Source: Escherichia phage SP27
Strand: one strand, 5' to 3'
Sequence record: LC494302.1
Length of the DNA: 64,000 bases
The position numbers and the translations under genes are program-made. Below the pieces are notes generated by a model, which saw only the letters and a list, made by a program, of their open reading frames with translations, was not told the origin of the DNA and ran no database searches. Shown here piece after piece: positions 43,912 to 63,749 of this stretch (its first letter is position 1; the number at the start of each line of letters is the position of its first letter).

Positions 43912-43947
43912 AAAGAAAAGGAGAGCATAATGCTCTCCTTTTTTTAT
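43912..43947. terminator. Bidirectional rho-independent terminator between clpA-like and the giant gene
   Basis: A-rich-GGAGAGCA-TAA-TGCTCTCC-TTTTTTTATT. Confidence 0.65.
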
Positions 43948-46900
43948 TACTTAACTAATAATATATTTTTAATATCATTACCACTAACTTGTAGACTATC
44001 AGTGTATACTGAAAGATCTATAGTGTAACTATTTTGTGTGTAACGTTTTAACATATCATAATTACCTAAATTAATTCCATTGAAAGAATATGTAGTATTA
44101 AGTTTAAAATCATGTTCTGCACTATACATTACACCACGGAGTAAATTATTTGCATTTCTAACTTCAACTTTTTCATATCCAATCGATATAATATCATTCA
44201 TGTTTGCGGCTGAACCGGATAAAACATTATTTCTAATACTATAAGGACTTATTGATTTAGGTTGAGAAACATAGGTTGTATTTTCTTCACTAATGGTTGT
44301 GATGTTAGTAACAGTACCACCAACAACACCGATATACATACCGTCAACCATTGGGAATCCATAAACCCATATCCCTTCATTATTTCTAAACGGTTGAATA
44401 ACACTTGAATCATATTCGATAACGTTGATTTCTAAACTATCAGTCATTTTAGTTCTTGCCAATTCACTAAGAACTCCCGCACCCGTAATTGGTAAGTTAT
44501 AACCGTTATCGATAGTAATTCCATCAACATCAAATATTTCATTAGAGATTATCCAAACGTCAACGTCATCTGGTGTTATTCCGTCATTGTACTTACCACC
44601 ATTTAAAGTAGTATCGTAGAAAACATCATAATTAATTACATCAATGGTGTAATTTCTATTTTGTTCATACAATTTAATACCATTCTTGACAAATTCAGGG
44701 TCAGCAAATGTTCTAACACGAACAATGTTCAATGCTAGAGGCTGTACTGGCTCATTTTGTTGTGCAAGAGTGATGTTATCATAACGGAGAACTGCACCAG
44801 TACTCTCATCAATCAATTCAATCGTTTCCTTACCTGTATTTCTTACAGTGAATAGGATCGGAGTTGTATTGTTTTTGATGTTAGATACACGCAAGATTGT
44901 TTCCCATGTGTGATTTTGATATCTCACAAAATCTTCACCATCAGGAGTGAAAATCATCACCTTATCACCATCAGATAGGTCATTGTCAACTATTTCTGCT
45001 TCAGTTAAGCTATTAATAGATCTCACACGATAGAAATATTTTTCATCAAACTTCGATGTTGTTTTATTAATATCATTTTCAATCTTAGCATATGAAGGAA
45101 TACTTACAATTGCTTCTGTATGTTTATATGGATTGATAATTGCCATACCTTCAGTTTGATATCTGCTGTTATCACGTAATTGTACAAGAGATACATTGTC
45201 AAACCCATATCCATCAACTGTAAATCTAATTTGACCTACATCACGCCCAGAAGGGTTTATGTCAGATATATCCACAATATAAGGATCAACTTCATCATCT
45301 TTAACTTCCCATTTTATTGAAGAAGTTTGAGATTCCAATGCTAGGTTATCAAATGCATTCATATCATTGAAGTACTTAGCTTCAGTAATACTATCAAGTA
45401 TATATTGATAATCAGAATACATTGGATTATTTTGATCTAGTGGTAAATCATCAAGATTTATTTCAGCTAGTTCAACCATTTCACCATTTGTGATAAAATA
45501 ATCTTCCATGAAATCATCAATACTTTGTTCATCAGGTATACTTTGATATACACCGTTAACATTTAAGTAAACATATTTTCGTGGAATCATTGTAATTGCA
45601 TAGATATCAATTGGGGTCTTACTAAGAATCTCTTCAGCTTTTTCGTACTTATCAGTAGCGTCTTTGTCGAATAACCCTCTCATACCTGCTAATACGTGAA
45701 TAGCATCAGTATAGAAACGGGTATCACCACCTACTTCATCATAACGATAAACATATACACCATACTCAACTTCAAGTTTAACTTTTACTTCATAGTCTGA
45801 TGCGTCAGGATTTTTATCTTTAATTAATGAAATGTATTTTTGATACAATTCACTGCTTATTTCAAAATATCCATAGTTATAATCATTACTAGAAGAAAAG
45901 CCTAATGGAAGTCTAGTACTAGGATTGTCATTATAAGTAAGTCCACTAAATCCACATCCAACTTCATCGTGAATTTTCTCATCACTTATATCTTTATAAA
46001 GTTTCAAACGGTTTGCCAATGTGTTATACTGAACATATTGTCTAAGGTCAGTAAACATATCGTTATGCGTTGATTCTTTATAAACACGTTCCAATGTAGC
46101 AGTGAATTCATCAGTTGCTTCTAAATCTTCCGCATGGTCTTTATACCACTGGTTAACGCCATATGCTGTTCCTAGTGTTACATCCAATTCTGGATAGTAG
46201 ATTTGCATTTGATAAGCAATAAGAAGATCGAAAGTTTCTTCACTATATTCTGGGAAAGAATATATATAACGTTGTAATTCATAGTTACTAACAGCATCCT
46301 TTTCATTGGATTGATATTTGTTATTAACACTTACTAATTCATTTATGCTTGCCAAATCTTCATTTGGTTTACACTGAATATTATCATAATGCATAATAAT
46401 ATCAATTTCTTGGAATCTTCTATTTGGTGTAACGAAATCACTTGGTAGTGAACCTACCTGTTCCCATTTTTGGGTAATTTCATTAAATTGAGCGTACTCA
46501 TAATCCCAAATATCTTTTTCAGTTTTGATCCAAGAACCGTCAACGAAAATATATCCATTAGGATCTAAATCATTACATAGACCTTTTATTAAATCATCAT
46601 CAGATGTCTTTTGCTCTATTTGTGAACGAATTTTAGTTCTATAAGGTTTAACTTCTTCAAAATATTCAACAATTTGATTAATCAAATTATCGTTTGAATA
46701 GTTTTGAACTAATGATTGTTCCAAACCAACAATATAGATATATGATGTTTTAAATACCCAATCCACAACACTTTGTTCAACATGTACATATTTGACCATA
46801 TCAAAAACAATTTCGCTTTGATGTAAATCGAAAGAATTTTTGAGTAAAGCTAGTGCTTTACGAACGTTGATTTCACGATTGCTTAGTGAACCATTATCAT

Positions 46901-49900
46901 TATGAACACTATAATCTGCGTAAAGCATATCATTGAGTTCAACTGTACTGTTTTCACGACCAATCGCTTTCCAATAAATTGAATCGCGTGATTGTGATTT
47001 AATATACAATGTCCAAATGTTTTCACTATCGGTAACTCTGATAATATCGCCAACTTGGTAGTTTTTAGTATTAGCATCTTCTAAGCTTGACTCTTGAGTA
47101 TAAGTCGTGTTACTATCATATCCAACATCATACCAATCAGCATATGACCAGTACTGAGTCATGTCTAATGAGGTTCCTAGTGATTCAACATAATCAGATT
47201 GTTTAATCATTTTATGTTGTCCCTCACCTTTGTTTTCTAACGTTATAGTAACAACACTACCCGCGTTTGCTGGACTATTCATTAACTGAATATATCCATT
47301 TTCGTCGAAGTGAATAAAATAAACAGCACTAGAAGTTAATGGATTTGGTAGATATCCACTAGTACTTAAAATAACAGCGTCATTTTCTTTAAATTTATCA
47401 CTTTCAACTGCAATAACTAATTCATTATTGTAAGACAACACACGGAAAGAAACTTCATTAGGGTTAACTTCAGTGGTTTTAACATTAAACACATCTTCCA
47501 TAACAACACTATTAGTGGTTATGTTTTGTGACCTATAATAATTATTAGCACTTTCTACAAAGTTTCTACGAGCTTCTATAACATTTTGGAACCAAGTTTT
47601 GTTTGATCCTAAACCGTTATCAACATCTGGATATAATAAATTAATCACAGAACCTGATTCAGTTGTTTCTTGACCAATTAGTGAGTTCCACATTGAATCC
47701 CAAATTAGTGGGTTAAAGTTATAGCTGTCACCTTCTTTACATAGTTGATACTGGTCATGTTTAACAACTTCAGTACTATCCATGTAATAAGAAACAGTTA
47801 AAATACTGGTATCATCATTCACTTTAAATTGCATATTACTAAGAATAAACGAGTTTTCATTTATTGGAGCGAACCAAGGAATGTTTAGCTGTGTTGGATC
47901 TTTAATAATACGAGCAATGTCAGTACATGATTTCGTTCTGGTATGTAGTGGTGGTACATAAATTGTATCACGTACCCAGAAATAGTATTTTGTTACATAA
48001 CTATCAGTTGAACTATCATATTCCAAAAATGTACTATAATTATCTTCAAGTGCAGTTCCACTTGGTAGATACATAGTATTATTTTTGTTTTTCTTAGCAA
48101 CATCTTTACAGTATTTGTCCCAGTTATATGGCTCAACTGGTGAACAAACCCACTCTAACACATCAATGGTACTATGTGGTAACAAACGGCCCCAGTTGTA
48201 ACGTTTGTATTCATTGGTTGCATCAATATCAACATTACCGTCTGCGTCATAAATTGCACGAGTATAATCCAAATAAAATGCAGTGCTAGTGTTCCACCAT
48301 ACTTGACCAACTTTATCAGCACCCCAAGCCTGGATTAACTCTCCATTACTATTATACTGTGCAGGATCAACTGGTGAAGTATATGTTACGTTTTGCATAG
48401 CCGCACCTGGAATAACACCATTAATTGGGTCATAAACGTTTAGATATAGCTCAGTAATGTTAGTACGTTCATCATATGTCGTTGGACGATCAAATAAAGT
48501 ACTTTGTGGTGCTTTAAAACTATATTTCTTGTCAATGTAAGCTTGACGATCATCAGTACTGGCAAAACGTGATACATAACGATACAAACGTGGACGTGTA
48601 TCTGGATCAGTAAATTCAATATCAATAGAAGTGTCAAATGGAACTACCATAACTTTAGGATCAGAACCAGCAGTATAATATTGACTTTCTACTGTTAAAG
48701 TATCTGGCATAAAGTTAGTTTCATCAACAAAATAATAATAATCACCATCTTCAAGTGGTACATTATCAGTTAAAGTTACTTTACAAAATTGTTCAGCATA
48801 CACATCGGTATTTTCAATAGGTGTTATAGAAACCATTTGTACATTAGTATCAACCAATTCAAAAATGTTCCACAAACCATTACCGTCTTTAAACATCCAC
48901 ACAGATTCAGGATTTTCACCTTTACCATTAGTATAAGTTATGCGGTCATTATATGCAGTACTGAAATCTTTTGTTGTGTACGATACTTCATCCAATGTTA
49001 CTGGACCAATATCTGGAAGTTGGATGTTTTCACTTCTTCCACTACGCATTGGGAATGAGAACTTACCATTTGGACGTGTAATCCAACGAGGATCTTTACC
49101 TTGCTCACCGAAGTATACAATATGATTACCATTACCATTTGAAGTTGCATTTACATCAAAAGAAACCATTTGAGGTTGTTGTTTAAATTGGTCATTGATT
49201 AGTTTAAATTGAAGGTTTTTCTTACCATCAATATTACCATATGTACCAATTTTAAATGCCCATTCTTGTAATGCTTTATATTCATCAGTGTCATATGATT
49301 TAGAAACACGAAGTACACGTTCTAAAACTTGGTTAGTACCTTTATCGTGAATGAATCCTTTATAGAAATCAACACGACTAACATCACTACTAATCATACG
49401 CTGTAGATAATCACGAGATTGATAACCAATCAAATGGTTTGACAACTCTTGTAATTGTACATCACTTACTGGAGTTTCACTATCATAATAATGTTGGAAA
49501 TCCGACACTAATTTTTCAAATGATGGTAGTGTTCCAGCTTCCAAGATAATAAATCCAGGAGCTTGTAGGCGACCAGTCCATGAACCAGTAATATATCCAT
49601 ACATTTTAATTAGTTCTTGAATAGAACCATATGTTGGCTGATAAATGTAATCACCAAAAATAGTTTTATCATCAAAAATAACAGCATGTTCATATGAACA
49701 CAAACTTAAACGAATCAATGCAATGCGTTTATTAGATTCTAAAGTTCTAACAGTGAAGATATTTCCAATACGAGAAGTTTCAATTTCATATTGGCGAATA
49801 CCTTGGTTATTATCATCAAGTAATGACCATACACCACCATTATTTTGCGTAATAGATTGTACTGAACCAAAGTCTGCCCCAAATTTAGCGTTTGCAGCAC

Positions 49901-52900
49901 TTGGGGTACAAGAAATAAATTCACCAGTTACTAGAGAATTCTGACTCCAGATCACGAAATCTTTAGCAATAGTGTTCCAATCTTGTTGAGCACCACTATC
50001 ATTTACATCTTCAAAAATCCAACCATGTTCTTTAAGATATTCACCATATCCACAAATAAAAGTATAAACTTCTTGGTAACTATTGAAAACTTTACCATAT
50101 TCAATTGAAGCTTCAGACTTCCATTCATTATAATGAACAACATTACGGTTTTCCAATTTAAGAGTTACTTTTCTACCATTTTTTACTGGAAGTTTATATT
50201 TAAATTTAGCACCAACTAGATCATATCCATCAATCTGATATGCACTACCATTCCAAGTAATTTTGATCGCACTCATTTGCTCATCACGGATATTATTAGA
50301 ACGAACAAGACCAATGGTTTGGTTTTCTTGTGAAATAAGACCGAAAGATTTAGCATTGAATGTTAGCTGATCTGCTTTAGTAAATCCTCCAATTTTATGA
50401 CCAACATTTATATAAGAAGAACGAACTACATCCCCATACTTGGTGGTAATATTTTTATTTTGATACATCAAATGGTCACTTACAAACATTTGATAACCAA
50501 TTGTTCTTGTGCTATTTTCACCATGAACTACTGTATTTTTATCAAAATTAATACGCTTACGTGTATCACCATAAAGGAATTGTGAACCATCAGTGAATAC
50601 TTCTTTTAAGTTATCGTTGCGGGTATCCCAGAAATAGTTAGCAAATTGTGCTGGTTTAGCTTTATACAAAAGCATCATTTGGTCATATGCAAACAATGTA
50701 GTGTTCATGTATGTAAATTCCATGTCACCCATATCACCATATGTCCAAGGTTCTGCTCTATGATTTAAAGATCCAGACACTAAACCTAAAATTTCAGGTG
50801 CAATATATTCAACCACACAAATATCAATACCAGAAGATGTTTTATTTCCAGTTTTTGTAATTTTGAATGGCTGTACACCAAATCTTTTATATTTGTCATA
50901 TTGACCACGACGATCACCAAATAAAATAGTTCCAGTACTGCTATCTCCAATAGTTCCGTCAATATCCCAAAGACCACTAGGAACTAAATCACCTTGCTCA
51001 TTCATAACAAGTGCTTCATATACATATACAACATCACTATCACGTTCACCAACTTGAACAGCCGTTGGTTCGTATTCTTGGTTCCACCAAGTTGGACGTT
51101 GTGTAAAGCCAAACATTTCCCACGGATGGGTAGCTGGGCGATATGTACCATATTGGTCAGTGTAAATGGCACGCCATGAACCACGTGCAGGAATTTCAGT
51201 ACTTTGACCATTAACTACATAATAAGTGCCAGTATAGTTCCAAGTTCTCCAATTGTTAGGATCATAATCATGTGTACTATTACTGATACCATTAGTTGCG
51301 GTGAAGTTAATGTATCCACGTAGTAATAATGTTTGTTTCTCTTCAGCACTATATTCAGTTTTAGTGAAATATGGTGTAGGGAAAAGGTCATCACTATTCA
51401 ATACTGGTACGTAATCAACATCTTTGAATTTATTATCAATACTATTAAAAATTCTATTTTCTAATTCATATACAACATCATCCATTTTATCAACACCATT
51501 GATAACACGGTATGCTTTGGAAATAATACCAGTATGACTGATGTTATAACAGCTTGGTTTACTACCAGCAGTGAGGAATGTCGCTTTTTCTGGTACATAT
51601 GCTTGAAGAATACCTAAGAACTGTGGTGTTGGTGGTATAAATGCACGAATGAATCCAGAAGTACTTCCAACATTATCATAATAGAATGGGAATGAACTAT
51701 CACGTCCCATATTAATAGTAGTTAAAATTGCATCAACAATGTTTGCAGCACTATTTTGTAAAAAGTCTGATGGATTTTCATCATACATACGAAGCATTTG
51801 TGTATTAAATTTATTAATGAATCTAAAATATTCAGATTGCATAAACATAGTTGCTTCAAACAAATCAATATCTTCATTTGCAGTATGTGCCATCAATGGA
51901 AGCATAGATGCTTCATTTTGGATAATTTTAGTACCTACGCCATTATTAACCAATCCTTTAGCCAAACGTTCTTCATAGTCATTGAAATCATCAGAAGAAC
52001 CACGTGTAATGTTCTTTTGAATAATATCCTGAAAATGTAAAGTGTAGTCACCTTGGTTAATGTATATAATATTAGAATTATATGGGTTATTTTGTAGGTT
52101 GATTGGAACTTCATATGCACCTAATTCTTTATTAGGAGTTACAGTACTGCTATAAGTTCTAATTTGAATAACAGAATCTTCATCCAATTCTACAGTACTA
52201 TCTAGAGTGATGCTTTGTACTTGACCTTTTGAAACATTTTTGGTATATTTGGACACATCAACACCATCAACCACAACTTCAATAATATCAGAATCATTAT
52301 CTAAAACTTTTTGTGCCAATTCGAATGTATGGTCATATTTTACAATCTGAACACCATCACCAGTAATTGGATGCCAATCTAGATAAGTTTCACGGTCAGC
52401 TTTATAGTACTGATATGTTCTATCAACTTCAATAACATATGCATACATACCATCAACTGGTTCTTTAAAAACTTCCATATCATAAACAGTACTGAATACA
52501 CGATACATATCAGTACGTTGGACTTGTGGAGTTTGTTTTACAAATTGTTTAGAGTACTCTTCTGAACGAACCCAATCGGTTTGAAGATTCATTTCATTAT
52601 TTTCATCAATAATGTTATAATAGTATAAACCATCAATTTCAACTTCTTTTCCAAGATGGTCATAGGTATAACGTTGGGATTGTAAAAAGTTTTCATAAAT
52701 GTAATAATTATAATCACCAAGTTCAATGTTATATCCATATACACTATCAGTTGCATAGTTGTAATTTATTTTAAAACCAAACAACTCTGAACCTTTAAAG
52801 TTACTTGATGGATATGTAGTACTGTTGTCAAGTTTGATACCATTACGATCATAAAGTTGGAATTTAGGGAATACGTTAACACTAGTTTTTGATTGTGCAC

Positions 52901-53948
52901 GAACCCACAAAGATCCATTCCAGTACATAGAACTATTACCATACTCATTACCTTTAGTGATTAGAACAACATCACCATCTTGAGGTTCACCACTTGGGCG
53001 TGATTCGGTTTCTTCTTCTGGATCTAGTGCTAAACCATAAACACGAGTACCATCTTGCATTTTTTTCACATATACATTATAAATTCTATTGTTTTCACCA
53101 TTGTTACCAATACTGGTGAATAGAATACGCATTCCATCTTGCGGAATAATACCATCAATACGTATACCACTATTAATATCTTTTTGAACGATATCTTCAG
53201 GTTTAATAATATCAGAGAACAGATCAACAGTTCCACGGAATTTTGTACCGTAGTTAATTAGCTCAATATTTTTATTATATTCAATAATTGGTGCACGTGC
53301 ACGAATAAAACGTGAATCTTGCATTAATTCTTCAGTTAATATTGAGCCATCTTCTAATGTTTCACCTAAAGTATACCAAAAGTTTTGTAGTGACCATGTA
53401 TTACCATTAAGTGCTCCACGTTCCATTACAATGTAATCAGGTGAAGTAATATTATAAGAGTTTTTAGTATCCCAAAGATATGAGCTAAAATTGTTCATTT
53501 TATTTGGGTTAATAGCTGGAGTCCATGCATAAAACTTACCGTTGAACAAACGGCTTTCATTATCGGTTAGTGCTCCATAATGATTCATGTATCCAACTAG
53601 ATCATCATAAAATTGAATTGAACGAATTGTCGAATCATCATTTTTTGAGACGTAAGCAGTGGACAACTGATAAAGTTGACGTGCTACAGTACTTTCATGT
53701 AAGAAGATATTACCAGCAGCGGCAGGAGAACCCATATCACCAATATAGCCGTCAACTAATTCGTTTTCAGCCGGATTAAACCATTGTTGAATAACATCAT
53801 CACTGACTTTTTGAATATCTTCTAAGCCTTGCATCCACTCAGGCAATCTTTTAATAAAAAGCTTCTTCTGTACTGCTTCAGCCATCTGTGTAGGTTGAAA
53901 CTTAAAATTATTAGTCATTTTTGGACTCCATATAATTCGTTCATTCAT
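43947..53948 (-). CDS. Giant structural protein (about 3330 aa), probably an expanded baseplate wedge/fiber-network protein
   Basis: Single uninterrupted frame immediately downstream of the gp6-like gene; likely start is the second Met (plus 53918, GGAG 8 nt upstream). Confidence 0.7.
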   Translation of the reverse strand: MNERIIWSPKMTNNFKFQPTQMAEAVQKKLFIKRLPEWMQGLEDIQKVSDDVIQQWFNPAENELVDGYIGDMGSPAAAGNIFLHESTVARQLYQLSTAYVSKNDDSTIRSIQFYDDLVGYMNHYGALTDNESRLFNGKFYAWTPAINPNKMNNFSSYLWDTKNSYNITSPDYIVMERGALNGNTWSLQNFWYTLGETLEDGSILTEELMQDSRFIRARAPIIEYNKNIELINYGTKFRGTVDLFSDIIKPEDIVQKDINSGIRIDGIIPQDGMRILFTSIGNNGENNRIYNVYVKKMQDGTRVYGLALDPEEETESRPSGEPQDGDVVLITKGNEYGNSSMYWNGSLWVRAQSKTSVNVFPKFQLYDRNGIKLDNSTTYPSSNFKGSELFGFKINYNYATDSVYGYNIELGDYNYYIYENFLQSQRYTYDHLGKEVEIDGLYYYNIIDENNEMNLQTDWVRSEEYSKQFVKQTPQVQRTDMYRVFSTVYDMEVFKEPVDGMYAYVIEVDRTYQYYKADRETYLDWHPITGDGVQIVKYDHTFELAQKVLDNDSDIIEVVVDGVDVSKYTKNVSKGQVQSITLDSTVELDEDSVIQIRTYSSTVTPNKELGAYEVPINLQNNPYNSNIIYINQGDYTLHFQDIIQKNITRGSSDDFNDYEERLAKGLVNNGVGTKIIQNEASMLPLMAHTANEDIDLFEATMFMQSEYFRFINKFNTQMLRMYDENPSDFLQNSAANIVDAILTTINMGRDSSFPFYYDNVGSTSGFIRAFIPPTPQFLGILQAYVPEKATFLTAGSKPSCYNISHTGIISKAYRVINGVDKMDDVVYELENRIFNSIDNKFKDVDYVPVLNSDDLFPTPYFTKTEYSAEEKQTLLLRGYINFTATNGISNSTHDYDPNNWRTWNYTGTYYVVNGQSTEIPARGSWRAIYTDQYGTYRPATHPWEMFGFTQRPTWWNQEYEPTAVQVGERDSDVVYVYEALVMNEQGDLVPSGLWDIDGTIGDSSTGTILFGDRRGQYDKYKRFGVQPFKITKTGNKTSSGIDICVVEYIAPEILGLVSGSLNHRAEPWTYGDMGDMEFTYMNTTLFAYDQMMLLYKAKPAQFANYFWDTRNDNLKEVFTDGSQFLYGDTRKRINFDKNTVVHGENSTRTIGYQMFVSDHLMYQNKNITTKYGDVVRSSYINVGHKIGGFTKADQLTFNAKSFGLISQENQTIGLVRSNNIRDEQMSAIKITWNGSAYQIDGYDLVGAKFKYKLPVKNGRKVTLKLENRNVVHYNEWKSEASIEYGKVFNSYQEVYTFICGYGEYLKEHGWIFEDVNDSGAQQDWNTIAKDFVIWSQNSLVTGEFISCTPSAANAKFGADFGSVQSITQNNGGVWSLLDDNNQGIRQYEIETSRIGNIFTVRTLESNKRIALIRLSLCSYEHAVIFDDKTIFGDYIYQPTYGSIQELIKMYGYITGSWTGRLQAPGFIILEAGTLPSFEKLVSDFQHYYDSETPVSDVQLQELSNHLIGYQSRDYLQRMISSDVSRVDFYKGFIHDKGTNQVLERVLRVSKSYDTDEYKALQEWAFKIGTYGNIDGKKNLQFKLINDQFKQQPQMVSFDVNATSNGNGNHIVYFGEQGKDPRWITRPNGKFSFPMRSGRSENIQLPDIGPVTLDEVSYTTKDFSTAYNDRITYTNGKGENPESVWMFKDGNGLWNIFELVDTNVQMVSITPIENTDVYAEQFCKVTLTDNVPLEDGDYYYFVDETNFMPDTLTVESQYYTAGSDPKVMVVPFDTSIDIEFTDPDTRPRLYRYVSRFASTDDRQAYIDKKYSFKAPQSTLFDRPTTYDERTNITELYLNVYDPINGVIPGAAMQNVTYTSPVDPAQYNSNGELIQAWGADKVGQVWWNTSTAFYLDYTRAIYDADGNVDIDATNEYKRYNWGRLLPHSTIDVLEWVCSPVEPYNWDKYCKDVAKKNKNNTMYLPSGTALEDNYSTFLEYDSSTDSYVTKYYFWVRDTIYVPPLHTRTKSCTDIARIIKDPTQLNIPWFAPINENSFILSNMQFKVNDDTSILTVSYYMDSTEVVKHDQYQLCKEGDSYNFNPLIWDSMWNSLIGQETTESGSVINLLYPDVDNGLGSNKTWFQNVIEARRNFVESANNYYRSQNITTNSVVMEDVFNVKTTEVNPNEVSFRVLSYNNELVIAVESDKFKENDAVILSTSGYLPNPLTSSAVYFIHFDENGYIQLMNSPANAGSVVTITLENKGEGQHKMIKQSDYVESLGTSLDMTQYWSYADWYDVGYDSNTTYTQESSLEDANTKNYQVGDIIRVTDSENIWTLYIKSQSRDSIYWKAIGRENSTVELNDMLYADYSVHNDNGSLSNREINVRKALALLKNSFDLHQSEIVFDMVKYVHVEQSVVDWVFKTSYIYIVGLEQSLVQNYSNDNLINQIVEYFEEVKPYRTKIRSQIEQKTSDDDLIKGLCNDLDPNGYIFVDGSWIKTEKDIWDYEYAQFNEITQKWEQVGSLPSDFVTPNRRFQEIDIIMHYDNIQCKPNEDLASINELVSVNNKYQSNEKDAVSNYELQRYIYSFPEYSEETFDLLIAYQMQIYYPELDVTLGTAYGVNQWYKDHAEDLEATDEFTATLERVYKESTHNDMFTDLRQYVQYNTLANRLKLYKDISDEKIHDEVGCGFSGLTYNDNPSTRLPLGFSSSNDYNYGYFEISSELYQKYISLIKDKNPDASDYEVKVKLEVEYGVYVYRYDEVGGDTRFYTDAIHVLAGMRGLFDKDATDKYEKAEEILSKTPIDIYAITMIPRKYVYLNVNGVYQSIPDEQSIDDFMEDYFITNGEMVELAEINLDDLPLDQNNPMYSDYQYILDSITEAKYFNDMNAFDNLALESQTSSIKWEVKDDEVDPYIVDISDINPSGRDVGQIRFTVDGYGFDNVSLVQLRDNSRYQTEGMAIINPYKHTEAIVSIPSYAKIENDINKTTSKFDEKYFYRVRSINSLTEAEIVDNDLSDGDKVMIFTPDGEDFVRYQNHTWETILRVSNIKNNTTPILFTVRNTGKETIELIDESTGAVLRYDNITLAQQNEPVQPLALNIVRVRTFADPEFVKNGIKLYEQNRNYTIDVINYDVFYDTTLNGGKYNDGITPDDVDVWIISNEIFDVDGITIDNGYNLPITGAGVLSELARTKMTDSLEINVIEYDSSVIQPFRNNEGIWVYGFPMVDGMYIGVVGGTVTNITTISEENTTYVSQPKSISPYSIRNNVLSGSAANMNDIISIGYEKVEVRNANNLLRGVMYSAEHDFKLNTTYSFNGINLGNYDMLKRYTQNSYTIDLSVYTDSLQVSGNDIKNILLVK

Positions 53949-53963
53949 TTGATTTATTTATGA

Positions 53964-53991
53964 TATAAAAAAGGCGTTCCGAAGAACGCCC
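53964..53991 (-). terminator. Rho-independent terminator (minus strand) between the gp6-like and giant genes
   Basis: GGCGTTC-CGAA-GAACGCC with AAAAAA on the plus strand upstream. Confidence 0.5.
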
Positions 53992-57525: not shown

Positions 57526-57557
57526 CAAAAAGAAAAGCACTCCGAAGAGTGCTTTTG
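57526..57557 (-). terminator. Rho-independent terminator (minus strand) after the gp25-like gene
   Basis: AAAGCACTC-CGAA-GAGTGCTTT with an A-rich plus-strand tract upstream. Confidence 0.5.
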
Positions 57558-57560
57558 TAA

Positions 57561-57956
57561 TTATAAAGACGATACTGAATATGTTGCCATTCTGTTATTA
57601 CTTCTTGCATCGAATACAATAGTAAGTTCTTCTAATGTATCCAATACTACGTACTGTAATACAATATTCATTTGGTATCCATATTCTATTCTTGAAATTT
57701 GCAATTTCTTAAGATTTAAGCGTGGATCTAAGCTAATTATTCTACGGGCATCTGCTTCCAAAAGGTTGATAGTATTATAACCTTCCAATTCAAACAGCAA
57801 ATCCCATGCAATAAAACCATAGTCAGCATCAAATGCTCTTTCGCCTTTTTTTGTATTGAAATGATTCATTAAATCTTGGCGAACCAATTCACTATCATAC
57901 AATGTTTCAGTTCTACCCACTACTGGGGTAGAAAAACCTTTAAAAACAACTGCCAT
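57561..57956 (-). CDS. Baseplate wedge protein, gp25 / GPW family
   Basis: 131 aa; GERAFDADYGFIAWDLLFE…ADARRIISLDPR matches the gp25-type G-R-F-P-FG core; RBS AAAGGAAA. Confidence 0.75.
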   Translation of the reverse strand: MAVVFKGFSTPVVGRTETLYDSELVRQDLMNHFNTKKGERAFDADYGFIAWDLLFELEGYNTINLLEADARRIISLDPRLNLKKLQISRIEYGYQMNIVLQYVVLDTLEELTIVFDARSNNRMATYSVSSL

Positions 57957-57971
57957 TGACTATTTCCTTTA

Positions 57972-58460
57972 TTATACGGATTCAACAATACGTGCCATCT
58001 TTTCCGCTCTTGAAGTGGTTTGTTTATACCATGTACTATCACGCAATTCCTTACCAGCAGTTTTATAATCAGCCTTACCTAATGCGGTCATTGCTTTTTT
58101 AAATTTTAAAACTTTGGTTTTGCCCATCTGGAATACCATCAACCATAATACACGTTGAACCTGTATAGGTGCGGTCATACCAAATTGTTCATAAATTGAT
58201 TTTGCATCATTGTACGCAGTTTGAGCATCTTTAAGAAGAAGTTGGTCAGCTTGTGCTTCTGTTAAACCATTCTTGAAATTTTCACCAGGTAAAACTAGGT
58301 GACCATAGCCAATTGTATCAAGACCTAAGCTGTCTTTATATACCCAAAACTTATCATTTTTAAAATAACCAAGTTTTTTCTGATAAGCAATAGTTCCTTC
58401 AAATTCTTTAATTTCCTTAAAAAATTGCTCATCTGTATTTTTAATTTCCCATTTACTCAT
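57972..58460 (-). CDS. T4-type lysozyme (GH24), stand-alone
   Basis: FEGTIAYQ…YKDSLGLDTIGYGH catalytic E/D/T triad, MVFQMG, STWYKQTTSRAEKMARIV. Confidence 0.85.
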   Translation of the reverse strand: MSKWEIKNTDEQFFKEIKEFEGTIAYQKKLGYFKNDKFWVYKDSLGLDTIGYGHLVLPGENFKNGLTEAQADQLLLKDAQTAYNDAKSIYEQFGMTAPIQVQRVLWLMVFQMGKTKVLKFKKAMTALGKADYKTAGKELRDSTWYKQTTSRAEKMARIVESV

Positions 58461-58496
58461 AAAGATATCCTCGTTTTATTTATAGTACTAAAATAT

Positions 58497-61160
58497 TTAT
58501 TGACATGCCTCTAAACGACGAGCCATTAACTCAGCACGGCGAGTAGTTTGGCGATACCAAGCTGAATTACGTATTTGAGCAGCAGCTTGTTTATAATTAC
58601 CTTTAGCTAATTCAGACAACATAGTTTTAAATTTAAGTACCCCACCTTTACCCATCTGGAATACCATTTGGCATAGTACTTGTTGAGCCAAATAAGGTGT
58701 TTTCATGTTATATGAAGCATAAATTGATTTAGCATCATATATAGCTTTACTACTATCACGAACTAACATATCGTTGGCTTGCTGTTCAGTTATTCCATCT
58801 GAAAAGTTTTCACCACTAATAATCAAGTGACCATAACCAATAGTTGGATACCCACGACTATCCAAATAACGCCAGAATTTACCATTACGATAATATCCTT
58901 TTGCTTGTTGGTATTGTAATGTACCTTCATATTCTTTTAATTCAGAAATAAATTGTGCATCACCTGGAACAACTTTCCAATCGATTGCAGTTTTATCAAC
59001 ATTTCCAATATTATAGGTAGGTTGCTCCACCGGAGTTGTTGAAGCTCCACTTCTCTGTGTTCTTCTCCTACGAGGCACATGACGAGAACCACGTTGAGAA
59101 TATCCAGTACCTATCGTTTTGATTTTTGTTGTAACTACCAATTCATCACTATCAACTGAAGGTTGTACAACTGCTTTTGGAGCAGATTGATTAGTTGCTT
59201 GACCACCAATTAATGTTTTATTCGCCGCATCAGACCCTGTTCCTGTTTGTGAAGCATAAAATAATCCTGGGTCAACAGAACCACTGAATCCAAGAACATT
59301 TGCTGATGTAACACGAATTTCAAACTGTATGACACCATTTGCTTTTCCAACAACTTGACCTTTTTGAACAACATCTTTGTTTAATAAATCAGATTGAATA
59401 TTATAAAAAATAGATTTATATCCAGACTTATGTTGTATTAAAAGAGCACCATTAGTAATTACTACCACACCACCATCTGGTGCAACTACATCACCTTTAC
59501 ATTGTATTTCCCAACCTGAACGGTCTGCCTTTCCTCCACTTTGTGTTGGAACACCTTTCCCCCAGTAACCATATTGTCGAATAGTACCGCTACATGGCAT
59601 TAACATATGTAAACCTTCATATGTAATACTATATCCAGTCATCCCAGGATCAGATGTCATCAAATCTTGTGATTGAACTTGTTCAGTTTCTGATGTATAG
59701 TTAACAAACTGAACAGCTTCAGTGTCTTGTGCTACGGGTAATTCTGGTGATACATCATTTGCTGGTTGTGGTTGTACTGGTGATTCACTAGAACCACTTC
59801 CACCACCTTGTCTTGGTGGTTCAACATAACTACCATGATTTTCAGCGTTAACCCATGCAGCGATATCATGAATGTGTTCATTAAGACCAGCAGATGGTGT
59901 TCTAAAGTTTGGTGCAGTAAATTCAGCAGTACCGCTATTACCACCACTATTAACTGTTAATGTTTGACCACCACCACTAATAATTGCTGATGATGATCCA
60001 ATTAGGTTTGCAGATGTTGCGGCAGAAATAGAAGCATTTGAACCAGCCGTAATATCAGTACTGCTACCACTTTGCATACGTAATGATGCAGCCGTAACTA
60101 AACGAAGGTCTGCCCCAGAATTAACAACAACTTGTCCACCAACTTTTGCATCAAGAGCACCAATTAGATCTAATTTAGTATTTGCACCAACTCGTGCATT
60201 GAAATCTTGTCCGGTTTCAATATTATATGAACGTCCAGCAGTAATATTAATATCTTGACCAGCACGAATATTAATATTCTTATCACAGTGCATGTCAATA
60301 TCACCTTCACCAGTGAATTTTATACGTGCAGTGCCATCACGGTTAATTAAAAGAACATCACCAGTAGCTTCTGATAAAAGAAGTTGTGCACCACTACGTG
60401 TTTTTATTACGACACCTTCATTTTTACGAGAACCAACACGTGTATCGTTTACTGGGTTATTAAATTGTGTATCTTGATATCCATCTGGGTCTTGATCCCA
60501 CGTTGGTGCTGTTAATTCCTCTTCAGTATATCCATCATCAATAATAAAACTATTACCACGTGGCGAAGACATACCATATACAGTACTGGTGGTTTGTCGA
60601 GTACTACTACGATTCGCCAACCCAGCTTCTTCGTCATATAAAAGGTTTTGCTTTTTAAGACCTGCGATAATTGGAACGTTAGCATATTTGTCTTGCATAT
60701 CGGTAGTGATAGTGTTACGATCATAGTCAGTAACAGGAAGTGGCATATCAGTTCCACCATAATTACTTACTTCAGTTGCCATACCTGGAACCATAGTATT
60801 CATACGCTGGTCATATACACAACCAATCCAATATGCTTGGAATGTACGGGCTTGTGCAAAAATTACAACAACTGTACACCCTACGTCTGGTGGTACTGCC
60901 CAAAAACCGTATCCTTTTGGATATTGACCATATGCATCAGCACTTGGAATACCTGGTGTTTTACCAGCAAAAGGAGACATGTAAGATGCTTCTATCCATG
61001 ATTCTTTTGAGTTTTTATCACTTTGAGAACCTTGTATCCAAACTTTCAGTTTTCCTGATTTAGTTGGATCTCTGTTATCCATAACAGTTGCTAACTGCGG
61101 ATAAGATGGGTCAAAACGACCCAACTGCTGTTGTGCATACTTTTTACTTGTATCTGCCAT
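58497..61160 (-). CDS. Baseplate central spike (gp5/VgrG-like) with OB-fold, beta-helix, degenerate LytM/M23-like domain and C-terminal lysozyme domain
   Basis: OB-fold LKVWIQ…SPFAG…GFWAVPPDVGCTVVVIFA; V-x-G beta-helix repeats; M23-like segment with IQFEIR in place of HLHFE; C-terminal lysozyme paralogous to 57972-58460. Confidence 0.8.
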   Translation of the reverse strand: MADTSKKYAQQQLGRFDPSYPQLATVMDNRDPTKSGKLKVWIQGSQSDKNSKESWIEASYMSPFAGKTPGIPSADAYGQYPKGYGFWAVPPDVGCTVVVIFAQARTFQAYWIGCVYDQRMNTMVPGMATEVSNYGGTDMPLPVTDYDRNTITTDMQDKYANVPIIAGLKKQNLLYDEEAGLANRSSTRQTTSTVYGMSSPRGNSFIIDDGYTEEELTAPTWDQDPDGYQDTQFNNPVNDTRVGSRKNEGVVIKTRSGAQLLLSEATGDVLLINRDGTARIKFTGEGDIDMHCDKNINIRAGQDINITAGRSYNIETGQDFNARVGANTKLDLIGALDAKVGGQVVVNSGADLRLVTAASLRMQSGSSTDITAGSNASISAATSANLIGSSSAIISGGGQTLTVNSGGNSGTAEFTAPNFRTPSAGLNEHIHDIAAWVNAENHGSYVEPPRQGGGSGSSESPVQPQPANDVSPELPVAQDTEAVQFVNYTSETEQVQSQDLMTSDPGMTGYSITYEGLHMLMPCSGTIRQYGYWGKGVPTQSGGKADRSGWEIQCKGDVVAPDGGVVVITNGALLIQHKSGYKSIFYNIQSDLLNKDVVQKGQVVGKANGVIQFEIRVTSANVLGFSGSVDPGLFYASQTGTGSDAANKTLIGGQATNQSAPKAVVQPSVDSDELVVTTKIKTIGTGYSQRGSRHVPRRRRTQRSGASTTPVEQPTYNIGNVDKTAIDWKVVPGDAQFISELKEYEGTLQYQQAKGYYRNGKFWRYLDSRGYPTIGYGHLIISGENFSDGITEQQANDMLVRDSSKAIYDAKSIYASYNMKTPYLAQQVLCQMVFQMGKGGVLKFKTMLSELAKGNYKQAAAQIRNSAWYRQTTRRAELMARRLEACQ

Positions 61161-61173
61161 AATATTTTATTCC

Positions 61174-63423
61174 TTAATCAACTATACTATCGTGACGTTT
61201 GAGTGCACGAATTACAATTGCAGCTTGAATTTGTTGTGTAAAAGAACCACCTGCACCAAAATCATGAACAATTTTATTAACACGATAAATTGTTTGGTTA
61301 AATGTGGTTGGTGTATTAATATCCAAAACACCAGTGTTATCATTTATTGATATTACTGGTTGTAATTTTAGTAATAGATACGCTTCAGATGTTATATAAT
61401 TTGCTACATGATAATCATCTGGGTTAATTTCCATATCTTCACCATTAATTACTTGTTCTAGATATTGTAAGTAAGAGTAATCACTCCACCCTAACCAGTA
61501 CGGGTCGCCTACTACACGCATATCGAGTTTACACAAAAAAGGTCTATTGTAATAGTTGTCACGTATTTTACGTCTATCCATTTCATATGTGCTGCTGTTA
61601 TCGTTTAACGAAGCGGATAAAGTTGTTTCATTGTTAGTTGCTTCGGTTGGCATTGTGAACACTTCACCATAACGGTGACCAACACCATCAGTGCCACCAT
61701 CGTTTTCTTCATAAGTGGTTACATAATCTTCAATATATTGAGGTAAAACATTGACTTGATAGTTATTATAACGGTCTTGTTCTTCTGCGTTACCAACCTG
61801 CATTTGATTTTTTGCTAAAGTTTCAACTTCAGTTAACAATTGTTGTTGGGCTTGTGTTAACATCCCTCCTAAATCACGAGTTACACGTAAATCACTTGTT
61901 TTTGCCCATGCGTCTGGTATACTATTGTATTGTACACCTTGAATATTGAGTTCTTGGGATGTATGTGTACCTGCATGGTTCGCTACATCTTGTATCGGAC
62001 CAGGGTTACGTGTAGTGGCTACGAAAAATTGCTGATCAAATTTCAAATCCAAATCAAGTATCTCACTATTAAGTCCACTAAATTGATAATTATAAGTTTT
62101 CATGTTTATTTTTGGTTTTTGATCATTAGGATCTACGTATTTTTCTGCGTTCTCAAAAAAGTACTCAAATGTGAAATTTTCAGGTTGTAAATCCGATTCA
62201 TGAACAATATCACCTATTTTAAATCTAACAATATAAAAAATTACTTTATAAACAGAAGTATTACGATAATTATCAAAACCAACGTATTGTTTAACTGGTA
62301 TAATGTTTACAAATTGACGCACACTAGTACTATCATCGGCTTGTACAGTACATGTATCAATAACGTCATCAATAATTCGAGATATAGGAGTACTTGGGTT
62401 CCATGAAAAGTTTTTAGAACCTTGTGCACCACTTTTAGTTGTTCCGGCCTCTGCCATTTGTTTAGAATCATAGTTTATAAACAAATCTTGCAAATCTGGT
62501 GCTACTTTAAATTCGAAAAATTTACCTTCGGATAATTCACCAAATTTATATCTAAGATAACCATATTGTTGGTCAGCCATCTGATTTAATTTATCTTCTA
62601 AATCAAAACAGAAGTCACCAAAGTTTTCAGCAGTACAATTGAATGGTTCTTTTAAGGTCCATTCAATGTTATCAACTAAAGCTGCTCTATTATGAACTAA
62701 GTTCATAGTATACATCATAGTACTACCACTTTGTGAAGCACTTGCAGTAACACTATTAATTTTAACTGACCAGCGTCTTGTTGTTTCTGGGATAATTTCA
62801 GGTATTCCATTTTTATTAAAGCCAATAAACTTTAATTCCAAGATCAATGGCAAGTCCATAAATTTATGATATCTAAGTTTGTTACTTAACGAAATTAATT
62901 CATCATATAGACTCATACTATTATTTTCAGACATATTAAGTACTGCTGTATTAAAACAATAGTTTGTTGTCATTCCTGGTGTTGAAGGTCCAGCTTGTGT
63001 CATTTGTACACTAGTGATATTATATTTGCCAGTAACACCACTTTCTGATATCACATGTCGTTGCACTTCTGCATCTGGGTAAAGCCAAAAGTTTTTAAAA
63101 TCATCTTTATCTAAGGCAAATAAACAAAAGTGCCAAGTTGGGTTATCATATTTCAATAATTTATTGTCATACGGTATTACAAACTGACTTAAATCGAGAT
63201 CTTCATAAACTTGATCAACACTAGCACTTTGTTTTGGTAATGATACTACATTACTTACATTTGCTTTGTAATTATTTTTTGTAATAGTTTTTACATCATT
63301 TTGTAATGTATTTGCTGTAGCTTTCAAACTATCAAGTGCATTAGATGTGGTGGTTTTAGCCTTACCAGTAATACTTGTAATATCATTTTGAAAATTATCA
63401 ACTGTACTTCGTAAATCTGCCAT
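61174..63423 (-). CDS. Hub-associated structural protein (gp27-like position; function unassigned)
   Basis: 749 aa directly upstream of the spike gene; RBS GGAGTAA. Confidence 0.45.
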   Translation of the reverse strand: MADLRSTVDNFQNDITSITGKAKTTTSNALDSLKATANTLQNDVKTITKNNYKANVSNVVSLPKQSASVDQVYEDLDLSQFVIPYDNKLLKYDNPTWHFCLFALDKDDFKNFWLYPDAEVQRHVISESGVTGKYNITSVQMTQAGPSTPGMTTNYCFNTAVLNMSENNSMSLYDELISLSNKLRYHKFMDLPLILELKFIGFNKNGIPEIIPETTRRWSVKINSVTASASQSGSTMMYTMNLVHNRAALVDNIEWTLKEPFNCTAENFGDFCFDLEDKLNQMADQQYGYLRYKFGELSEGKFFEFKVAPDLQDLFINYDSKQMAEAGTTKSGAQGSKNFSWNPSTPISRIIDDVIDTCTVQADDSTSVRQFVNIIPVKQYVGFDNYRNTSVYKVIFYIVRFKIGDIVHESDLQPENFTFEYFFENAEKYVDPNDQKPKINMKTYNYQFSGLNSEILDLDLKFDQQFFVATTRNPGPIQDVANHAGTHTSQELNIQGVQYNSIPDAWAKTSDLRVTRDLGGMLTQAQQQLLTEVETLAKNQMQVGNAEEQDRYNNYQVNVLPQYIEDYVTTYEENDGGTDGVGHRYGEVFTMPTEATNNETTLSASLNDNSSTYEMDRRKIRDNYYNRPFLCKLDMRVVGDPYWLGWSDYSYLQYLEQVINGEDMEINPDDYHVANYITSEAYLLLKLQPVISINDNTGVLDINTPTTFNQTIYRVNKIVHDFGAGGSFTQQIQAAIVIRALKRHDSIVD

Positions 63424-63434
63424 ACGTTACTCCA

Positions 63435-63749
63435 TTAGCCTATGTTTCGAGTACCATTAAGATAATTCTGTACTCTTTGATTTGCTGGTATTCTAATTGT
63501 TACTCCACTTTTAAAATTATATATAGGATCTTCTCCTAGTATGTCTGGATTTAACAATGCGAAAATATAATATAAGCGTTCATTACCATACATTTCGTAT
63601 GCTAAACGCCAAGGTTGATATTCATATTTCAATGGGATCTCATAAAAATCATCAGTATCAGCCGGAACAATATCACGTGGTAAAGTATACCCAAGATACC
63701 ATGTTTGTTTCACCTTAGCGTAAGGTGAGTATTGACTATAGTTGGACAT
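63435..63749 (-). CDS. Small baseplate protein with a gpX-like LysM-type motif
   Basis: WRLAYEMYGNERLYYIFALLNPDILGEDPIYNFKSGVTIRIP resembles the P2 gpX pattern; RBS AAAGGAGG. Confidence 0.5.
   Translation of the reverse strand: MSNYSQYSPYAKVKQTWYLGYTLPRDIVPADTDDFYEIPLKYEYQPWRLAYEMYGNERLYYIFALLNPDILGEDPIYNFKSGVTIRIPANQRVQNYLNGTRNIG

Follow-up and report, generated by a model that had tools for sequence, protein, structure and literature searches.

A probable central spike with a degenerate LytM domain and a T4-type lysozyme behind its predicted needle in Escherichia phage SP27 and related jumbo phages

Introduction

What can the central spike of a jumbo phage carry behind its needle, and why would part of this cargo be conserved after it has lost its catalytic residues? 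The question is raised by a locus in a 64,000-nucleotide (nt) stretch of the genome of Escherichia phage SP27 (record LC494302.1; this 64-kb stretch is referred to as the window), in which two neighbouring genes between positions 57,972 and 61,160 encode a protein of 887 amino acids (aa) and a lysozyme of 162 aa. We conclude, with a probability that we put at about 0.75, that the 887-aa protein is the central spike with which an Asteriusvirus, one of the RaK2-like jumbo myoviruses, punctures the cell, and that it forms a trimeric spike with tethered cargo. Its needle is followed by a LytM domain, which is predicted to be catalytically dead, and by an active-looking lysozyme.

The architecture of this spike is already published for RaK2-like jumbo phages (2013, 2017). 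In the RaK2 paper (2013), the layout of the spike gp078 was described and three lysozymes were listed. In the CBB paper (2017), CBB_238 was reported as gp25-like, CBB_239 as a T4-type lysozyme and CBB_240 as the spike, in which a gp5 OB domain at the N-terminus and a lysozyme at the C-terminus flank a possible M23 domain (E=6.5e-4). The same paper noted the contrast with T4 gp5 and a possible M23 domain in other RaK2-like phages, gave an HHpred match to a type VI secretion system (T6SS) spike in its supplement, and reported CBB_238 and CBB_240, but not CBB_239, as virion proteins. New here are the predicted loss of LytM activity in 87 family members under strong purifying selection, the restriction of this LytM subfamily to spikes and its EnvC-like fold, an invariant HxH motif, recombination of a C-terminal cassette at the first linker behind the needle (linker 1), and the promoter-like motifs and the patchy presence of the free lysozyme gene. 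In our literature search, we came across no mention of the HxH motif, of the recombining cassette or of the lost catalytic residues in the LytM domain.

Results

Domain order of the spike

Both open reading frames (ORFs) lie on the minus strand, at the positions given in a sequence-only reading of the window, which a model had made from the letters and the ORF translations (Table 1). For the 887-aa protein, this reading had proposed the order OB-fold, beta-helix of V-x-G repeats, M23-like segment and T4-type lysozyme, and Pfam, the octad repeats, a VgrG profile and AlphaFold2 (AF2)/Foldseek all agree with this order.

In the N-terminal half, Pfam recognises Phage_base_V (PF04717, the OB domain) at residues 23-116 (29.8 bits versus a cut-off of 23.8) and DUF2345, the VgrG beta-helix, at residues 278-329. 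About 14 octads (KNINIRAG, QDINITAG, RSYNIETG etc.) occupy residues ~294-405, and the lag-8 hydrophobic autocorrelation is 0.33. A family profile of 19 sequences covering residues 1-455 matches the T6SS VgrG 9jg8 at E=6.7e-13, with the OB-fold (residues 19-118) and the helix (residues 252-398) aligned, and also matches P. aeruginosa VgrG1, the contractile injection system (CIS) spikes of AlgoCIS and Anabaena, and a T4-like gp5; hhalign of the same profile against the single T4 gp5 sequence gave a match of 26 residues only, at 1.9% probability. The AF2 model of the spike (monomer, 117-sequence alignment, mean predicted local distance difference test (pLDDT) score 83.6) has seven short strands in the OB-fold (pLDDT 72-89) and a pLDDT of ~90 across residues 250-420, and its top Foldseek matches in the PDB, over 332-391 columns, are the AlgoCIS spike, VgrG and the Anabaena CIS spike. 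These strong matches in sequence and fold, together with a conserved baseplate synteny, predict that the OB-fold and the beta-helix form a contractile-injection central spike of the VgrG/gp5/gpV superfamily, and the VgrG fold and profile matches likewise predict a beta-helix for the V-x-G region. Because VgrG and CIS spikes are the best matches of the N-terminal half, the likeness to an evolved VgrG that the sequence-only reading had drawn is a fair analogy.

The 130-residue insert between the OB-fold and the needle has no match in Pfam, PDB or NCBIfam and no similarity to lysozyme. It is the best-conserved part of the spike (mean identity to the query 0.71) and is modelled by AF2 as mixed alpha/beta (pLDDT 64-89).

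At the other end of the needle, H429-x-H431 is found in all of the 87 family sequences and H442 in 81 of them. This HxH stands directly after the beta-helix, yet 456 residues follow it. In the work on P2 gpV, an HxH histidine cage is the hallmark of gpV-type spikes, and by analogy the HxH of the SP27 spike probably holds a metal between the chains in the same kind of cage. The Apex spikes P2 gpV and phi92 gp138 share with the SP27 spike the OB-fold, the beta-helix and the universal HxH at the end of the helix; in gpV, however, the HxH lies ~12 residues from the C-terminus and forms the tip, in which an Fe ion is bound. In some distant relatives of ~555 aa, an HxH in the context 'GL(N/Q)xHxH' is found ~95 residues from the end of the protein.

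The comparison with T4 gp5, a protein of the baseplate axis, agrees with the sequence-only reading that the domain order differs. The two proteins have in common an OB-fold, a GH24 domain, an octad beta-helix and a gene located between homologues of gene 53 and gene 6. However, in BLASTP, only residues 191-324 of gp5 align with the spike, at residues 765-876 (34% identity, E=1e-16), and this sole alignment at the C-terminus shows the difference in domain order directly: the gp5 lysozyme lies between the OB-fold and the helix, while that of the spike is C-terminal, after the HxH and the LytM domain. Moreover, the gp5 chain terminates with its helix, on which the PAAR protein gp5.4 sits as a cap, while the helix of the spike ends at about residue 415 of 887.

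The LytM domain

Only the trimmed segment and family profiles revealed the M23 similarity. For the whole 887-aa protein, there was no Pfam M23 match, and single-sequence searches of the PDB also gave no M23 match. The isolated segment 495-650, by contrast, matches PF01551 at E=1.3e-4 (22.6 bits, under the cut-off of 28.7), and 31 of 32 family members match PF01551, the best at 6.9e-11. In the PDB, a family profile of the domain matches LasA, SpoIIQ, zoocin A, DipM and EnvC. The domain is modelled with a pLDDT of 86-95, and its top LytM match by fold is the amidase-activator domain of EnvC; the comparison with degenerate LytM amidase activators made from the sequence alone was therefore apt. 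Identity to the degenerate LytM proteins EnvC, SpoIIQ and DipM is 19-21% versus 13-17% to active enzymes, with tiny margins.

Measured against active M23 enzymes, the domain has the fold, but the HxxxD/HxH ligands and the two catalytic His residues are absent. As the sequence-only reading had pointed out, 'IQFEIR' occupies the place of HLHFE(I)R. In this protein, all five metal/catalytic positions are replaced (R547, E551, N587, V610 and Q612). For lysostaphin, a forced global alignment was poor, and the local YxHL match alone was used. Across 87 homologues, which are 36-93% identical, His is never found at positions 587, 610 or 612; it occurs at position 547 in five sequences, and Asp occurs at position 551 in two. 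Position 551 is I in 50 sequences, E in nine, T in eight and V in seven, and position 612 can be E, Q, T, N, I, V, Y or L. The invariant residues of the domain, W550, H577, G580, R616, D630, P631 and G632, are the usual determinants of the M23 fold. Because all metal and catalytic residues are lost, the domain, as far as its sequence predicts, cannot be a canonical metallopeptidase. We regard it as extremely improbable that it is still a peptidase that uses non-canonical residues: the LytM fold is intact and conserved and E551 could in principle bind a metal, but none of the five canonical residues is kept in this protein, four of the positions differ freely from one family member to the next, and no alternative conserved cluster of His, Asp or Glu emerged in the domain among the 87 homologues.

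The domain is nevertheless as conserved as its lysozyme neighbour. The mean identity is 0.56 for the LytM domain versus 0.57 for the lysozyme domain, and in four Asteriusvirus genomes its ratio of nonsynonymous to synonymous substitution rates (dN/dS) is 0.02-0.05, the same as that of the lysozyme domain. When 1.84 billion representative proteins were searched with the LytM domain by phmmer, nine matches had E<=0.001; seven of these are spikes of ~870-985 aa with the domain at the same position, and the others are an 84-aa fragment and a 1772-aa repetitive protein. Thus, the domain represents a spike-specific subfamily of degenerate LytM domains. EnvC, NlpD, DipM and SpoIIQ are bacterial regulators or scaffolds, whereas the spike LytM subfamily was found only in phage spikes.

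Most likely, the LytM domain serves as a peptidoglycan-binding, positioning or regulatory module. A more specific alternative is that it is carried into the periplasm on the tip of the needle, mimics EnvC or NlpD and activates AmiA, AmiB or AmiC of the host, or another autolysin, at the site of penetration. The loss of catalytic residues at such a low dN/dS, the EnvC domain as top fold match, the slightly higher identities to EnvC, SpoIIQ and DipM and the use of EnvC and NlpD by enterobacterial hosts are all in line with such mimicry; if it were true, the wall would be breached jointly by the phage lysozyme and by hijacked host enzymes. However, the sequence profile scores EnvC at only E=0.039, behind LasA and SpoIIQ. 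Also, T4-type lysozyme needs peptide-substituted MurNAc, and stripping of the peptides could therefore work against this alternative, to which we give little credence compared with the more general role as a binding, positioning or regulatory module.

The lysozyme domain and its free paralogue

In the C-terminal domain, Pfam recognises Phage_lysozyme (PF00959) at residues 765-882. In an alignment with T4 lysozyme, E745, D767 and T773 fall on E11, D20 and T26, and the E/D/T triad is intact, as had been read from the sequence alone. E745 and D767 are kept in 86 of the 87 spikes, while position 773 varies (T in 61 spikes, D in 19, S in four). Judged by this triad, the domain is active-looking. 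It shares the GH24 fold and the triad with T4 lysozyme, the product of gene e, but, relative to the latter, there is an insertion of 13 residues between the Glu and the Asp and a deletion of ~19 residues around T4 lysozyme positions 35-55.

The 162-aa protein is closely similar to this domain. It is identical to spike residues 728-885 at 83 of 158 positions (53%, no gaps, E=3e-57), which bears out the paralogy proposed in the sequence-only reading, and in the alignment with T4 lysozyme its triad is E20/D42/T48; the triad is intact in all 72 free copies. There is no third GH24 copy within the window. Of the 72 free lysozymes, 68 fall into a single clade in a neighbour-joining tree and the other four group with (pro)phage lysozymes of ~148 aa, while the lysozyme domains of the spikes form a main clade and a basal grade, separate from the clade of free copies. 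Free and spike GH24 domains are both nearer to ~148-aa enterobacterial (pro)phage GH24 proteins than to T4 lysozyme, suggesting that the duplication is old; the deep branches are short. Based on these sequence relationships, the 162-aa gene appears to be an old paralogue of the lysozyme domain of the spike.

What, then, is the function of the free copy? Its gene adjoins the spike gene in Asteriusvirus, in GAP32, in Klebsiella, Erwinia and Yersinia jumbo phages and in one distant relative, but is lacking in P0080 and P0076, two relatives whose spikes share this architecture, and beside two more distant spikes. Because of this patchy presence, the gene is accessory. We rejected the possibility that the protein is an obligatory component of the baseplate, given that relatives with the same spike lack it and that it is unseen in virions: mass spectrometry (MS) of phAPEC6 and CBB virions did not detect homologues of the 162-aa lysozyme.

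The sequence-only reading had suggested that the 162-aa protein may be the endolysin, and this is the part of that reading that we do not favour. The suggestion would place it beside T4, in which gene e is to the gp5 lysozyme what the free copy is to the lysozyme domain of the spike, and it concerns a question separate from that of the spike. The protein is soluble, has an intact triad, is encoded beside late-promoter-like motifs and has, as its nearest outside relatives, the ~148-aa enterobacterial (pro)phage GH24 proteins (~50% identity). Its homologues were not found in virions, and its orthologue LysUE1 was cloned and purified and lyses EDTA-treated cells, as described in the UE-S1 paper (2025). 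On the other hand, the protein has no hydrophobic, signal or membrane segment, and, as had been noted from the sequence alone, no holin is obvious nearby: there is no holin-like or transmembrane ORF in the immediate neighbourhood of the gene, and its neighbours are baseplate genes with no adjacent holin/spanin cassette. Furthermore, the gene is absent beside the spikes of P0080 and P0076, and the lineage has another GH24 protein that fits the role better. This third GH24 protein, 121Q gp532 (L007 32192-33118), is encoded ~3 kb upstream of the start of the window. It combines a hydrophobic segment at the N-terminus with LysM and with a GH24 domain, the latter sharing 36% identity with the free copy; the gene of an Rz-like spanin (gp511) lies a few kb to ~9 kb further upstream. 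In the CBB paper, the homologue of gp532 was proposed as a signal-anchored endolysin. We therefore consider the membrane-anchored LysM-GH24 protein gp532 the likelier endolysin, and it is doubtful that the 162-aa protein is the main one. Rather, the 162-aa protein is most likely a soluble, probably late-expressed accessory lysin that is neither an obligatory part of the baseplate nor the sole endolysin. In pairing GH24 with LysM, the putative endolysin has an arrangement comparable to that of the LytM and GH24 domains in the spike.

Exchange of the C-terminal cassette

Two linkers flank the LytM domain. Linker 1 has the highest dN/dS in the gene (0.15-0.21 in the four Asteriusvirus genomes) and is modelled with a strand at residues 478-486, a helix at residues 490-499 and a stretch of low confidence at residues 503-509. 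Linker 2 is modelled with a strand at residues 675-682 and has low confidence at residues 702-715. Its basic tract RHVPRRRRTQR (residues 693-703, ~59052-59084) lies just ahead of the lysozyme, in a region that is basic family-wide, and may act as a charged tether or as a dibasic site for a protease.

Compared with 121Q, the spike gene of the window is mosaic. Codons 1 to ~475 are 99-100% identical in nucleotide sequence, while identity after codon ~480 is 82-94%; the downstream free lysozyme and gp25 genes are again 95-97% identical. The drop at codons ~475-500 indicates a recombination junction in linker 1, between the needle and the enzymatic cassette, and the mosaic identity indicates that the LytM-lysozyme cassette has a separate history. 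Thus, by sequence comparison, linker 1 appears to be the site at which the C-terminal LytM-lysozyme cassette recombines as a whole. In more distant spikes, the OB-fold and the helix are kept, but the C-terminal end is a GH24 domain with no LytM domain before it or a GH19 domain; others, ~500-580 aa long, have no hydrolase. These varied C-terminal domains suggest that the cargo position is interchangeable.

In L003 8001-10505 and in P0099, P0107, P0110, P0095 and P0115, we observed the same baseplate synteny and an OB-fold and needle with a GH19 chitinase-type or LytM-less GH24 end. P0185, a JGI metagenome protein considered as a longer lysozyme, was rejected because it is a chimeric ORF that joins ~43 gp25-like residues to the linker-2/lysozyme end of a spike; it is probably an artefact of assembly or recombination.

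The separability of the two halves also bears on the fate of the protein. The LytM-lysozyme half might be cut off during or after assembly, leaving an HxH-tipped needle as the mature spike; the fragment would then stay non-covalently attached or would act only within the producing cell, helping in assembly or in lysis. T4 gp5 is reportedly processed between its lysozyme and its helix, and in the SP27 spike, the invariant HxH closes the helix at the point where gpV-type spikes stop; a Gly/Ser/Pro-rich linker, which has a low-confidence stretch and holds the recombination junction, comes next. However, no motif beyond 'PANDV' that might direct cleavage is conserved in linker 1. phAPEC6 gp241 is listed at its full predicted 95.9 kDa, but this is a calculated mass and not a gel mass, and both models are compatible with the strong purifying selection on the two C-terminal domains. 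All in all, we consider such processing unlikely and retain the full-length spike with tethered cargo.

Genome context and expression signals

The spike gene lies in a run of baseplate genes in the order gp53-like, 749-aa protein, spike, lysozyme, gp25 and gp6-like (Table 1), and the same order is kept in distant relatives. The 749-aa protein has no Pfam or PDB match, and its gene is syntenic upstream of the spike gene in all relatives. In the phAPEC6 paper, the counterparts of this protein (gp240) and of the gp6-like protein (gp244) were found in virions. The giant virion protein is ~3,300 aa in PBECO4 and 3,300-5,250 aa in relatives, and its gene is always preceded by the gp6-like gene.

Table 1. 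Features of the spike locus and its surroundings in the window
Feature	Position	Strand	Basis or remark
gp53-like baseplate gene	63435..63749		baseplate gene run
749-aa virion structural protein, upstream of spike	61174..63423	minus	PHROG 11190
Predicted central spike gene, 887 aa	58497..61160	minus	ORF; PHROG 13211 end-to-end at 1812.9 bits
Predicted OB-fold, residues ~19-120	60801..61106	minus	Pfam PF04717, VgrG profile alignment, AF2
Conserved insert, residues 121-250	60411..60800	minus	in the slot of the T4 gp5 lysozyme
Predicted beta-helix needle, residues ~251-415	59916..60410	minus	DUF2345, octads, profile, AF2, Foldseek
Apex-like segment, residues 416-448	59817..59915	minus	HxH (H429, H431; codons 59868-59876) and H442
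Linker 1, residues 449-505, Gly/Ser/Pro-rich, conserved 'PANDV'	59646..59816	minus	alignment; recombination junction
Degenerate LytM/M23 domain, residues ~506-636	59253..59645	minus	Pfam segment, profile, fold
Linker 2, residues 637-725, conserved 'ELVV..(K)..IGSGYSQRGS', basic tract RHVPRRRRTQR	58986..59252	minus	alignment
C-terminal T4-type (GH24) lysozyme, residues 726-887	58500..58985	minus	E745, D767, T773
Two late-promoter-like ATAAATA motifs	58477..58500	minus	36-nt spacer before the free lysozyme gene
Free GH24 lysozyme gene, 162 aa	57972..58460	minus	ORF
gp25-like baseplate wedge/sheath-initiator	57561..57956	minus	Pfam PF04965, PHROG 43
Terminator-like hairpin after gp25	57533..57556	minus	equivalent hairpin in GAP32
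gp6-like baseplate wedge protein, 1153 aa	53998..57459	minus	PHROG 10646 and 219
Terminator-like hairpin after gp6-like gene	53972-53991	minus
Giant virion protein gene after gp6-like gene	43947-53950 (approx.)	minus

The motif ATAAATA was proposed as a late promoter in the literature on CBB and GAP32. In the window, it is strongly depleted (13 copies versus ~49 expected), and 10 of the 13 copies lie within 60 nt upstream of an ORF start. Two copies precede the free lysozyme gene: the one at 58494-58500 overlaps the stop codon of the spike gene and is conserved at the same place in GAP32, and the one at 58477-58484 reads TATAAATA and is the sole TATAAATA in the window, against 10.3 +/- 3.4 expected. 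Taken together with the hairpin after gp25, these promoter-like motifs suggest that the free lysozyme gene is probably transcribed late, together with gp25, as a separate unit. Both terminator-like hairpins precede an ATAAATA motif ahead of the next gene, and the gp25/gp6 arrangement is kept in GAP32 and in the metagenomic relatives L003-L006.

Over the 4-kb spike/lysozyme region, the window is 100% identical to Escherichia phage vB_Eco_slurp01, an Asteriusvirus and RaK2-like jumbo myovirus, 99.8% identical to PBECO4, 95.7% to 121Q, 88% to UE-S1 DNA and 84-88% to other Asteriusvirus genomes; there was no match in complete E. coli genomes. The identity of 100% to slurp01 is claimed for the 4-kb region only. 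Outside this region, there are small indels relative to the slurp01 record LT603033.1, with an offset of 112 nt near 1 kb that is 1 nt at about 40 kb, and a 40-mer from around 20 kb of the window is not found in that record.

Discussion

Based on the domain identities and their order, the loss of catalytic residues and the conservation documented here or in the literature, we suggest a model for the action of the SP27 spike, in which we infer how the trimer is built, that it binds metal, that the C-terminal half stays in the virion and what the LytM domain does. In this model, the N-terminal OB-fold would seat the trimeric spike in the hub of the baseplate, and the intertwined beta-helix would form a needle ~9 nm long that is closed by the HxH histidine cage. 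Beyond the HxH, each chain would continue for ~440 residues through a partly flexible linker, the LytM domain, a basic linker and the GH24 lysozyme. Upon contraction of the sheath, the needle would cross the outer membrane, the three tethered lysozymes would reach the peptidoglycan and a local cut would let the tube pass; the dead LytM domain would act in binding to peptidoglycan, in positioning or in regulation. Consistent with the assignment as a central spike, close homologues were seen in virions by MS, i.e. phAPEC6 gp241 (99% identity) and CBB_240 (~58%).

Several observations weigh against this model. The published MS coverage of the spike homologues in virions is only 4-10% and is given without peptide positions, and RaK2 gp078 was not detected in RaK2 virions. 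In the AF2 monomer, residues 293-391 are extended and have no intrachain strands according to DSSP, which is expected for an intertwined helix but is not proof of one. In a search for a PAAR-type tip protein that fell short of the whole genome, tblastn found no homologue of gp5.4 in ~130 kb of this and closely related genomes, and Pfam gave no PAAR match among 10 small ORFs. In the lysozyme domain, the Asp at position 773 in 19 of the 87 spike homologues never occurs in the 72 free copies, and the most divergent spike, P0086, has neither the catalytic Glu nor the catalytic Asp. Finally, three appendages of 48 kDa on a membrane-piercing tip are mechanically awkward.

RaK2 gp078, CBB_240, GAP32 gp234 and phAPEC6 gp241 belong to the same family as the SP27 spike, with 58-99% identity and the same length, neighbourhood and domain order, and there is no difference of substance between them. 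Outside this family, a parallel in design is the evolved VgrG, in which an enzyme that acts in the periplasm is likewise fused after an OB-fold and beta-helix spike. For instance, V. cholerae VgrG-3 carries a lysozyme-like domain, and P. aeruginosa VgrG2b is an evolved VgrG with a metallopeptidase domain. However, the phage spike has no fused gp27-like hub and starts with the OB-fold at residue ~19, and the alignments begin at residue 363 of VgrG; also, it is part of a phage virion, while VgrG is a secreted effector carrier.

Enzymes at the far end of a tail are also found in phages of Gram-positive hosts. In phage 812 (Kayvirus), the central spike has an enzymatic domain at its far C-terminal end, after a trimeric stalk; different from the SP27 spike, this enzyme is a phosphodiesterase on a coiled-coil stalk and the host is Gram-positive. 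The tail-tip enzyme gp13 of phi29 reportedly combines a lysozyme-like domain with a LytM domain, with the LytM domain active, a Gram-positive host and no spike. In the phi29 literature, gp13 is described as a 'lysozyme-like tail protein'.

Thus, the layout shows that enzymatic cargo of a phage central spike can be placed after the needle, as in evolved VgrGs, and not only inside it, and this cargo appears to be swapped as a cassette. These findings are useful for the annotation of jumbo-phage baseplates and for the engineering of spikes and lysins. The question with the widest reach is the role of a strictly conserved but dead LytM domain on a puncturing device, where it may be an anchor to peptidoglycan, a regulator of the lysozyme or an activator of host amidases.

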